This document shows positions 18,262 to 64,000 of a stretch of DNA of 64,000 bases, piece after piece. Source of the DNA: Thermoanaerobaculia bacterium (GTDB taxonomy: Bacteria; Acidobacteriota; Thermoanaerobaculia; Gp7-AA8); contig DASVRB010000185.1 in assembly GCA_036388835.1 (NCBI GenBank), forward strand, positions 12,021-76,020, in the 5' to 3' direction. Numbering within the stretch: position 1 is the stretch's first letter; each line of letters begins with the position of its first letter. The position numbers and the translations under genes are program-made. The notes under the pieces are model-generated. The model searched no databases. It worked only from the letters and a program-made list of their open reading frames with translations, and had not been told where the DNA came from.

Positions 18262-18303
18262 CCGCCCCGTCATCCTTCGCTAAAGCTCAGGATGACGGGG
18301 CGG
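18262..18303. terminator. Perfect 14-bp stem-loop between convergent genes (GTCATCC-family hairpin), probable bidirectional terminator
   Basis: CCGCCCCGTCATCC-ttcgctaaagctca-GGATGACGGGGCGG. No strong T-run on either side. Confidence 0.45.
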
Positions 18304-18316
18304 GGCCGTGCAGGTG

Positions 18317-54610: not shown

Positions 54611-54686
54611 GCTGGCATAGCTCAGTTGGTAGAGCAGCTGATTTGTAATCAGCAGGTCGCGGGTTCGAGTCCCGTCGCCAGCTCCA
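54611..54686 (+). tRNA. tRNA-Thr (anticodon TGT)
   Basis: Cloverleaf: acceptor GCTGGCA/..GCCAGC, anticodon arm GCTGA-TTTGTAA-TCAGC, T-loop GTTCGAGT, 3' CCA encoded. Confidence 0.85.
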
Positions 54687-54713
54687 GATCGAAACGAAGA
54701 AAGCTCAACTCGG

Positions 54714-54800
54714 GGAGAGTTGGCTGAGCGGTCAAAAGCAGCAGACTGTAAATCTGCCGGGCCACGCCCTACGGAGGTTCGAATCCTCCACTCTCCACCA
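54714..54800 (+). tRNA. tRNA-Tyr (anticodon GTA), long variable arm
   Basis: Acceptor GGAGAGT/ACTCTCC, anticodon arm GCAGA-CTGTAAA-TCTGC, long variable arm, T-arm GGAGG-TTCGAAT-CCTCC, CCA encoded. Confidence 0.85.
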
Positions 54801-54828
54801 AATGTTCTCGAGGCTGGCGCCCACGTGA

Positions 54829-54903
54829 GCGGGAGTAACTCAGGGGTAGAGTCACAGCCTTCCAAGCTGTTGGTCGCGGGTTCGAATCCCGTCTCCCGCT
54901 CCA
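54829..54903 (+). tRNA. tRNA-Gly (anticodon TCC)
   Basis: Acceptor GCGGGAG/CTCCCGC, anticodon arm ACAGC-CTTCCAA-GCTGT, T-loop GTTCGAAT, CCA encoded. Confidence 0.85.
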
Positions 54904-54977
54904 ATCAGGAACACCAGTCCTCGCGCAGTCGGCGGGGCGAGAAGCAGGATGCGCCGGCCGCGGCGCAGACGAAGTAA

Positions 54978-55052
54978 GCCCTCGTAGCTCAGGGGTAGAG
55001 CACGTCCTTGGTAAGGACGGGGTCACCAGTTCAAATCTGGTCGAGGGCTCCA
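54978..55052 (+). tRNA. tRNA-Thr (anticodon GGT)
   Basis: Acceptor GCCCTCG/CGAGGGC, anticodon arm CGTCC-TTGGTAA-GGACG, T-loop GTTCAAAT, CCA encoded. Confidence 0.85.
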
Positions 55053-55063
55053 CCAAATCGAAG

Positions 55064-55150
55064 AATTGAGGATTTGGAATTGAGGATTGAGGATTAGAAG
55101 CGACAGCCGTCCGCGGCCGACCTTCATCCTCAATCCTCAATTCTCAATCC
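55064..55150. repeat. Inverted-repeat element built from GATTGAG heptamer repeats (copy 2)
   Basis: GAATTGAGGATTTGGAATTGAGGATTGAGGATTA ..loop.. TCATCCTCAATCCTCAATTCTCAATCC. Arms nearly identical to the 49203..49288 copy, loop sequence different. Confidence 0.6.
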
Positions 55151-55166
55151 TGACGGAGTCAGAAAA

Positions 55167-55325
55167 ATGGCCGCAACGCGCGAAATCATCACTCTCCAGT
55201 GCACCGAGTGCAAACGTCGGAATTACACGACCACCAAGAACAAAAAGACGATGACCGAGAAGCTGGAGCTCAAGAAGTTCTGCCGGCACGATCGGAAGCG
55301 CACGGTCCACAAAGAAACCAAGTGA
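55167..55325 (+). CDS. rpmG: 50S ribosomal protein L33
   Basis: [52 protein letters not shown] (zinc-ribbon L33, 52 aa). Too short for the ORF track. Confidence 0.85.
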
Positions 55326-55444
55326 GGAAAGCGCCGCGATTGCGGCGCGGACACTCATCCTGAGCGGCGCCGCCGCGAGGGATCTTCAGCACCAGGGAAT
55401 TAACGGGGAGGCGTAAGTCTTCTCGGCAGTTTGCGTCTCTGCAC

Positions 55445-55520
<76 letters not shown>

Positions 55521-58834: not shown

Positions 58835-58965
58835 ACGTGTCATCCCGTGGCTGCGCAGACAGCCGCGGGATCCCCTCATTCAGGGGATTCCGCGTCGTCT
58901 CCGCGACGCGGAATGACACGAGACATGTTTCCGGGCGGTGCGATTGCATCGCCCGGATTTGTCGT
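58835..58965 (+). promoter_or_regulatory. Structured rplL-rpoB intergenic attenuator region: three adjacent hairpins closed by an outer helix, then a terminator-like hairpin
   Basis: Outer CGTGTCAT../..ATGACACG. Inner hairpins CCCGTGGCTG-cgcaga-CAGCCGCGGG, ATCCCCT-cattc-AGGGGAT, TCCGCGTCG-tctc-CGACGCGGA. Then CCGGGCGGTGCG-attg-CATCGCCCGG followed by ATTTGTCGTCTTTG. E. coli has a partial terminator at this position. Confidence 0.5.
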
Positions 58966-59104
58966 CTTTGAAGAAACACCTCTAGAGCCAGAGAAGGGGG
59001 GAGCGGCCTTCTCGCCACGGCTCACCATCGCGTACTCCTCTTTGCGTTGCCTGCAAAGAGGCCTCGCCTGACGCGAAGTATCAGTTCAATAGGAGTCACA
59101 CCGA

Positions 59105-63391
<4,287 letters not shown>

Positions 63392-63394
63392 CGA

Positions 63395-63583
63395 ATGGCC
63401 CGCAGAGTCACGAGCCTTGCCCGCATGCCGAACGCCGATTGCCGTGCCTGTCACGGCCTCGGATCGATTCACATGACCGTTCACTTTCACTCCGGCGATA
63501 CCGATTGGGAAACGCCGTGCTGGGAGTGTTTCGGCACGAACGTGAAACTGCAGTTCCCGCATCCCAAAACGACTGACAACTGA
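63395..63583 (+). CDS. Small putative zinc-ribbon protein (62 aa) encoded between rpoB and rpoC
   Basis: AAGGAA RBS-like sequence ~7 nt upstream of the ATG. CRAC-x22-CWEC (MARRVTSLARMPNADCRACHGLGSIHMTVHFHSGDTDWETPCWECFGTNVKLQFPHPKTTDN). A 12-bp perfect-stem hairpin (GACCGGCGCGCG-ttcc-CGCGCCGGTC, 63586..63611) directly follows the stop. Confidence 0.4.
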   Translation: MARRVTSLARMPNADCRACHGLGSIHMTVHFHSGDTDWETPCWECFGTNVKLQFPHPKTTDN

Positions 63584-63622
63584 CCGGCGCGCGTTCCGCG
63601 CCGGTCATCCTGAAGCGCGTGA

Positions 63623-64000
<378 letters not shown>

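Follow-up and report, generated by a model that had tools for sequence, protein, structure and literature searches.

A small gene encoding a putative DnaJ-type zinc finger between rpoB and rpoC in a clade of Thermoanaerobaculia

Zinc fingers of the DnaJ type bind proteins, both in DnaJ and in Anti-TRAP, a stand-alone finger of ~50-60 aa that acts on another protein by binding it. Small proteins, sometimes zinc-binding, also dock on the large subunits of RNA polymerase (omega, delta, epsilon and RbpA, as well as RpoP/Rpb12 and RpoN/Rpb10), and some of these are lineage-restricted. We know of none that is encoded between rpoB and rpoC, the genes for the beta and beta' subunits. This junction is among the most conserved gene adjacencies in bacteria, and it is unusual for a protein-coding gene to be inserted there and maintained by purifying selection throughout an order-level clade. 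Here we describe such a gene, termed X, in a stretch of 64,000 nucleotides (the window) from a Thermoanaerobaculia bacterium (assembly GCA_036388835.1, contig DASVRB010000185.1, positions 12,021 to 76,020 of the forward strand). In the literature searched, neither a gene between rpoB and rpoC nor the X family is described, and nothing relevant turned up on zinc proteins of the rpoBC operon or on the RNA polymerase of Thermoanaerobaculia. An earlier reading of the window, called the original prediction below, had proposed a small polymerase-associated zinc-ribbon protein at this site. The best explanation overall, to which we assign a probability of about 0.5, is that X is a clade-specific zinc-finger gene whose product is a partner of RNA polymerase, and that the hairpin at its 3' end is a separate element.

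Coding evidence and start signals of X

X lies in the 285-nt interval between rpoB and rpoC (Table 1). An open reading frame (ORF) of 62 aa is by itself weak evidence in a GC-rich window for which dozens of spurious ORFs were listed, and the significance of X therefore comes from its conservation rather than its length. A search of 5.8 billion proteins returned 37 homologue clusters with 58-88% identity, almost all exactly 62 aa long. Via X, 44 loci were fetched: 42 by a scan of one genome per GTDB species, all of them metagenome-assembled genomes labelled Thermoanaerobaculia or Acidobacteriota, and 2 contigs by protein look-ups. In 44/44 of these loci, an intact homologous ORF of 61-65 codons separates rpoB from rpoC, and the order rpoB-X-rpoC with an intact frame recurred in 6 further loci found independently through rpoB, giving 50/50 X-carrying loci. 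Frameshifts and premature stops, which the original prediction had proposed looking for in related genomes, were found in none of them. Across loci, protein identity falls to 45% and the slot between rpoB and rpoC is unchanged; each related locus has an orthologous rpoB upstream of X, and that of locus L002 shows Pfam RNA_pol_Rpb2 domains.

Selection on X is purifying. Pairwise Nei-Gojobori comparison gave a mean proportion of nonsynonymous differences (pN) of 0.19 vs a synonymous value (pS) of 0.53 and a median dN/dS of 0.23, and X of the closest relative, L003, differs from that of the window only by synonymous changes. Nucleotide diversity at third codon positions is 2x that at first and second positions, and the GC content at the three codon positions (GC1/2/3) is 0.52/0.53/0.78. 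When all six frames were compared, the X frame was open in 44/44 loci and the other five in 2-27/44. The antisense ORF at 63408-63608 was rejected as a candidate gene, being open in only 27/44 loci vs 44/44 for X. Together, these comparisons make it almost certain that X is a genuine protein-coding gene.

In most loci, the Shine-Dalgarno sequence of X is contributed by rpoB. The rpoB stop codon TAG (63389-63391) is separated from the ATG of X by three bases (CGA), such that the ATG begins at the fourth base past the stop. The final rpoB codons, L-K-E-stop (...TTGAAGGAATAG), hold an AAGGA motif 7 nt upstream of the ATG, in agreement with the ribosome-binding site that the original prediction had called plausible. 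At ~32 loci, X starts 2-9 nt past the rpoB stop with AAGGAR (AAGGAA or AAGGAG) in the final rpoB codons; because the Shine-Dalgarno sequence of X is made by the last codons of rpoB, translational coupling is implied. Another ~12 loci have a longer rpoB-X gap of 49-141 nt, often with repeats resembling repetitive extragenic palindromic (REP) sequences, and have their own GGAG-type site there. Downstream, the X-rpoC spacer ranges from 12 to 105 nt, and at several loci the X stop lies only 12-20 nt before the TTG start of rpoC, with the rpoC Shine-Dalgarno sequence directly after it. The first ten codons of X are constrained (pN/pS 0.51), and the ATG and its upstream Shine-Dalgarno sequence are conserved; for these reasons we prefer the 62-aa form to the 52-aa form of some annotation pipelines. 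A read-through product or fusion with beta was considered as well, since X is in frame with rpoB in the window, and was rejected on the spread of the gap modulo 3 across loci (17/11/15).

Predicted fold, origin and possible role of X

The original prediction had located cysteine pairs at C16-x2-C19 and C42-x2-C45 and read them as a zinc ribbon. The positions agree with ours, and all four cysteines are invariant among 38 aligned members; the ribbon assignment does not hold, since the motifs are those of a single-centre CXXCXGXG finger of the DnaJ/UvrA type instead. The alignment contains 17 invariant residues (P12, C16, A18, C19, H20, G21, G23, T28, H30, F31, G34, C42, W43, E44, C45, P55 and P57), and D61-N62 at the C-terminus is nearly invariant. 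Motif 1 (C16-R-A-C19-H-G21-x-G23) is a full CXXCXGXG, invariant in the 38 sequences, and motif 2 (C42-W-E-C45-[FY]-G47-x-[DN]) is a near-match to it. Specifically, the Pfam profile of this motif, PF00684 (DnaJ_CXXCXGXG), was matched by 38/38 members at E<=0.01, the best of them at 9e-6; X of the window scored 23.1 bits (E 9e-5), below the gathering threshold of 32.7 bits. The match spans profile positions 16-52 of 65, corresponding to one of the two zinc centres of DnaJ.

In a profile search of the PDB, the top-ranking match was the UvrA C-terminal zinc finger (E 0.04-0.07), followed by the cysteine-rich domain of DnaJ (E 0.07); none of these E-values is significant. AlphaFold2, run with the family alignment, gave a model with a mean predicted local distance difference test (pLDDT) score of 77, in which a beta-hairpin (24-31, 34-41) is clamped at its base by both knuckles and the tails are extended; Foldseek of this model vs the PDB returned nothing significant. 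When 1.84 billion representatives were searched with a HMMER profile, only five hits fell below 1e-10, and each belonged to the same family or was a truncated copy. Beyond the family, that search found only a few proteins with multiple CXXCXGXG repeats and a doubtful 83-aa protein, P0046, and it found no X outside the rpoB-rpoC context. Relatives are annotated as 'hypothetical protein' or, at the Joint Genome Institute (JGI), as 'DnaJ-class molecular chaperone'. A dnaJ or uvrA donor inside the window was also sought and rejected, as no CXXCXGX[GDN] motif other than those of X itself occurs in any of its six frames. X very probably binds zinc through a DnaJ-type finger. Judged by its sequences, the X family is narrow and uncurated, with a minimal single-centre finger of the DnaJ/UvrA type, and lies outside any named family.

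The distribution of X was traced on a neighbour-joining tree of the last 1000 residues of RpoB from 74 loci, on which all X-bearing loci formed one clade. The nearest outgroups (L060, L061/L064) and ~27 farther Acidobacteriota loci lack X and have non-coding rpoB-rpoC spacers of 60-278 nt. Only one lineage nested in the X clade, L053 (WNEY01004017.1), sister to L048-L051, has no X at the locus, which we read as a secondary loss. On this tree, X arose once, at the base of one clade of Thermoanaerobaculia (Acidobacteriota) and within the rplKAJL-rpoBC cluster, and was retained in 50/51 sampled clade loci. The members of this clade are uncultured soil Acidobacteriota.

The spacers that lack X have structures of their own. 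The L053 site holds a 127-nt spacer of nested hairpins, in which ccctctcc...ggagaggg repeats sit inside cccctcacc...ggtgagggg, and its rpoB still ends in ...GAAGGAATGA. Elsewhere among X-less Acidobacteriota (L075, L076, L078, L080, L091, L094, L107 and others), non-coding spacers of 100-278 nt carry long inverted repeats at both ends, for example cagttctcggttcccagttc...gagaactgggaaccgagaactg, and look like processing stalks.

Near the N-terminus of beta, at residues ~82-140, an insertion of ~60 aa carries four CxxC pairs and gives weak Pfam hits to double zinc ribbons. The original prediction had found X the more interesting on account of this insertion. However, the insertion is far older and broader than X and does not co-vary with it: it is almost invariant within the X clade and is found, with 58-78% identity, in X-less outgroup lineages as well. 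Because it long predates X, there is no support for a functional link between the two. A DNA-level scan of metagenomes confirmed at least 590 stretches with the insertion, and a protein-index search with it returned fragments only. The insertion is ancient, apparently phylum-wide, seemingly undescribed and independent of X.

An association with RNA polymerase is suggested by the strict rpoB-X-rpoC order in 50 loci and by the coupling of the X start to the rpoB stop, and we put the chance that X acts on or with this enzyme at close to even, if slightly below. On this view, the ribosomes that complete beta would go on to translate X, with synthesis of beta' from the same mRNA following at once. 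The C-terminus of beta and the N-terminal zinc-binding region of beta', encoded on either side of X, meet in RNA polymerase. The protein could thus be a protein-binding polymerase partner, either a lineage-specific accessory subunit or an assembly or holdase factor at the beta/beta' junction, with the zinc finger as a rigid scaffold and the conserved tails (M11-P12; K51, P55, P57, D61-N62) as docking elements. More tentative is the fuller proposal that X is an unrecognised lineage-specific zinc-binding subunit or dedicated assembly factor, made co-translationally and docking at the beta/beta' junction as a bacterial functional counterpart of Rpb12/RpoP and Rpb10/RpoN, small zinc-binding subunits that in archaeal and eukaryotic polymerases help to keep the large subunits together.

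Several observations weigh against a polymerase partner. Gene position is the only ground from which the link to RNA polymerase is drawn, and DnaJ-type fingers elsewhere have chaperone or other protein-binding roles unrelated to transcription. Known polymerase subunits and factors (RpoZ, RpoE-delta, RpoY-epsilon, RbpA, DksA, RpoP) showed no similarity to X at Pfam E<=10 or NCBIfam E<=1, and X was not seen fused to either beta or beta'. Co-occurrence of X with the rpoB insertion was considered and rejected, as ~30 loci of other Acidobacteriota lineages have the insertion together with a non-coding rpoB-rpoC spacer. Since the nested L053 lineage lives without X, the gene is not indispensable; RpoB of L053 has 6 unique substitutions vs 0-8 in X-bearing lineages, with no signal of a changed interface, and a loss without unusual RpoB change argues against an indispensable subunit.

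Among other explanations, X could be a general DnaJ-finger chaperone, holdase or thiol-redox mini-protein whose clients have nothing to do with the polymerase and which simply profits from its place in a strong constitutive operon. DnaJ-type fingers are indeed its only detectable similarity, the JGI label 'DnaJ-class molecular chaperone' agrees with such a role, and L053 lost X without visible change in RpoB. A hitch-hiker would, however, be expected to move or to appear elsewhere, and none did among the 5 hits below 1e-10; instead, X occupies the same 200-nt slot in 50/50 X loci down to 45% identity, with its start coupled to the rpoB stop, and we consider a general chaperone unlikely. It is less probable still that X is a nucleic acid-proximal factor whose beta-hairpin contacts DNA or nascent RNA in transcription or repair, in the manner of the UvrA finger, instead of a structural subunit of the polymerase. 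That finger is the best match among solved structures (CEACHGDGIIKIEMHF..PCEVCHGK vs CRACHGLGSIHMTVHF..PCWECFGT in X, E 0.04-0.07), and the N-terminal tail of X (MxRR/KxxxLSR) is basic, but these E-values are not significant, the isoelectric point (pI) is near neutral (6.9), and conservation falls mostly on aromatic, His or Pro residues and not on basic ones. The UvrA finger itself reportedly regulates the damage-specific binding of DNA and does not bind DNA directly, which also counts against this idea.

Two further explanations give the peptide itself a minor part or none. X might be a coupling or regulatory ORF, whose translation, together with the stop-codon hairpin, sets the beta:beta' ratio, the peptide being secondary. 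The start 2-9 nt past the rpoB stop in most loci and the stop 12-20 nt before the rpoC TTG in several would suit such a device; yet pure coupling would not keep a zinc-finger motif, and X is under purifying selection with 17 invariant residues, the four Cys included, while an X-rpoC spacer of 12 to 105 nt means that coupling to rpoC is not conserved. We regard this as improbable. As for a spurious ORF over a spacer whose conserved functional element is the hairpin, chance ORFs are many in GC-rich genomes and the covariation of hairpin 1, described below, is real. Nevertheless, the frame is intact in 50/50 loci, dN/dS is 0.23, GC3 bears a coding signature, and the hairpin is missing in ~70% of X loci, some with an X-rpoC spacer of 12-20 nt; these data on frame, selection and hairpin absence already refute a spurious ORF, and its chance is negligible.

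Should X bind RNA polymerase, the small list of lineage-specific bacterial partners of the enzyme would gain a new member, a zinc-finger accessory subunit or assembly factor, in a phylum, the Acidobacteriota, with an essentially unstudied transcription machinery. Even if it is not a polymerase partner, X defines a new minimal family of single-centre DnaJ-type zinc fingers. At 7 kDa, the protein is small and could be studied by heterologous co-expression, with no need for a culture of the organism.

Hairpins and other features of the locus

The original prediction had also described a perfect-stem hairpin of 12 bp directly following X. The hairpin is real, but its stem has 11 bp (63581-63591 with 63597-63607); it overlaps the end of X, whose own TGA stop codon opens the 5' arm. 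Perfect hairpins of at least 11 bp number 8 in the window vs 0.45 expected, and strong hairpins are thus a general intergenic feature here. For the rpoB-rpoC spacer as a whole, folding gave z = -3.45, and 0/200 shuffles fold as well; the hairpin is more than chance would produce. A GC-rich stem that includes the stop codon is present at the X end in 12/45 loci, window included. Across these 12 species, 100% of cells in the hairpin 1 alignment are paired and 6/11 pairs have changed on both sides, a result that 0/500 shuffles reach and that no slid register comes close to. Paired cells and compensatory changes together argue that the structure of hairpin 1 is under selection. Other long, different hairpins occur between X and rpoC in L009, L022, L028, L037 and L038, and other spacers are too short for any.

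In 10/12 of these loci, hairpin 1 is fused through a shared GTCA to hairpin 2, a REP-like unit with the consensus GTCATCCTGAGC(n)GCGAAGGATCTC. The motif GTCATCCTGAGC..GCGAAGGATCTC has 34 matches in 507 kb of related loci plus the window. Most of its intergenic copies follow the stops of rplL, rpoB, rpoC or rpmG; at least 3 of the 34 matches lie inside rpoB or rpoC coding sequence, probably by chance. Inverted pairs are found in L002, L003, L004, L013, L023 and L038, and further copies in L016, L026 and others. The window has 3 copies, at 63604-63637 (+), 55353-55387 (+) and 18262-18305 (-, after a minus-strand gene). Some repeat copies have a locus-specific GC hairpin ahead of them, and translated read-through of the repeat produces spurious N-terminal extensions, as in P0028.

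Table 1. Features of X and its surroundings in the window
Feature	Positions	Strand	Description
Second two-part module	55331..55387	+	GC hairpin GCGCCGC-gatt-GCGGCGC followed by TCATCCTGAGCGgcgccgCCGCGAGGGATCTTC; directly after the rpmG (L33) stop
rpoB	59105..63391	+	RNA polymerase beta, 1428 aa; from the ORF list; upstream neighbour of X
Shine-Dalgarno-like AAGGA	63383..63387	+	7 nt upstream of the X ATG, inside the rpoB end (last Lys-Glu codons)
X	63395..63583	+	62 aa, 7.0 kDa, pI 6.9; ATG to TGA; protein MARRVTSLARMPNADCRACHGLGSIHMTVHFHSGDTDWETPCWECFGTNVKLQFPHPKTTDN
Parts of X			Basic N-terminal tail (MxRR/KxxxLSR); knuckles C16-R-A-C19-H-G-x-G and C42-W-E-C45-[FY]-G; beta-hairpin 24-41 between them
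C-terminal tail of X			Conserved residues K51, P55, P57, D61, N62
Predicted X peptide			MTVHFHSGDTDWETPCWECFGTNVK
Hairpin 1	63581..63607	+	11-bp perfect GC-rich stem TGACCGGCGCG / CGCGCCGGTCA, loop CGTTC
Hairpin 2	63604..63637	+	REP-like unit GTCATCCTGAAGCGCgtgaGCGCTGAAGGATCTC; from the fold; first bases GTCA shared with the 3' arm of hairpin 1
rpoC Shine-Dalgarno GGGAGG	63665..63670	+	Within the conserved GGGAGGCGCAAATTG block
rpoC start	63677..64000	+	RNA polymerase beta'; Pfam RNA_pol_Rpb1_1; TTG start; first 107 codons, runs off the window end

A role for hairpin 1 as an intrinsic terminator was rejected: TCCTGAAG follows the stem, there is no U-tract, and no plus-strand terminator was called in 62800-64000. 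A known RNA family was likewise rejected for the hairpins, with nothing in Rfam at gathering thresholds and nothing meaningful at E<=10. The hairpin does not behave as a partner of X, being absent from ~70% of X loci, with its 3' half belonging to the dispersed repeat. We conclude that it is a REP-like structured intercistronic element, separate and optional rather than an obligate partner of X. It may affect the stability or processing of the mRNA 3' end, or ribosome release, rather than the function of X. The original prediction had compared it with an RNase III hairpin in the rpoB-rpoC spacer of Escherichia coli; according to PMC2777011, which cites Barry et al. 1980, the documented RNase III site of the rplJL-rpoBC transcript lies in the rplL-rpoB spacer instead.

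In the window, that rplL-rpoB spacer (275 nt) has two perfect hairpins, of 11 bp at 58887-58914 and 9 bp at 59037-59061, which are candidates for the attenuator and processing signals known there in E. coli. The gene cluster at the window end runs tRNA-Thr/Tyr/Gly/Thr, rpmG, tRNA-Trp, secE, nusG, rplK, rplA, rplJ, rplL, rpoB and the start of rpoC. The tRNA cluster is followed directly by rpmG and tRNA-Trp (54611-55520), with no tuf gene between them; tuf at that position is a common bacterial arrangement. At the rpoC end, the GGGAGGCGCAAATTG block is conserved in essentially all loci, and every X-rpoC spacer ends with GGGAGGCGCAAATTG and the rpoC start. In 44/45 loci this start is TTG, and the block ahead of it, GGGAGGCGCAAA, hardly varies. 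A conserved weak TTG start combined with a strong Shine-Dalgarno sequence hints at tuned translation of beta'.

Comparison with known systems

Of the structured elements, hairpin 2 resembles REP sequences and bacterial interspersed mosaic elements (BIMEs): it is a short GC-rich imperfect palindrome with many intergenic copies, often after stops, and with inverted pairs. Its sequence is unrelated to enterobacterial REPs and matches no Rfam family. Hairpin 1 departs further from this pattern, as it is locus-specific in sequence and evolves by compensatory change.

X is encoded inside the polymerase operon and is small, like the small polymerase subunits and partners, but it shares no sequence similarity with any of them. 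To Anti-TRAP (RtpA) of Bacillus subtilis there are weak matches, at 18.2 bits (E 0.002) for NCBIfam NF058604 and E 0.036 for Pfam PF15777. The NF058604 match covers 14 residues only and falls far below the 65-bit cut-off, which places X outside that family. X also lies between rpoB and rpoC rather than in an rtpA-ycbK operon, and its tails and HF/WE residues are not shared with Anti-TRAP.

The C-terminal finger of UvrA is similar in detail. The spacing from the second Cys to H-F is identical, P-C precedes the second knuckle in both, and the two share the pattern CxACHGxGxIxxxxHF...PCxxCxG. However, the UvrA finger is a module in a 940-aa ATP-binding cassette (ABC) ATPase, and there is no evidence that X derives from uvrA.

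With the cysteine-rich domain of DnaJ (PF00684), and specifically its inner zinc centre II, X shares a CXXCXGXG motif (C16-R-A-C19-H-G21-L-G23), a second knuckle (C42-W-E-C45-F-G47) with a beta-hairpin between the two, and F at +12 from the second Cys. It has two motifs, four Cys and one zinc centre, whereas DnaJ has four motifs and two centres, and X differs from the DnaJ domain family in this respect. X also stands alone, without a J-domain or C-terminal substrate domain; it has 4 extra residues in the hairpin and D or N in place of the final Gly of motif 2, and all members score below the Pfam threshold. Overall, X represents a new family, restricted to one clade and structurally of a known kind, whose genomic position is unusual and suggestive.

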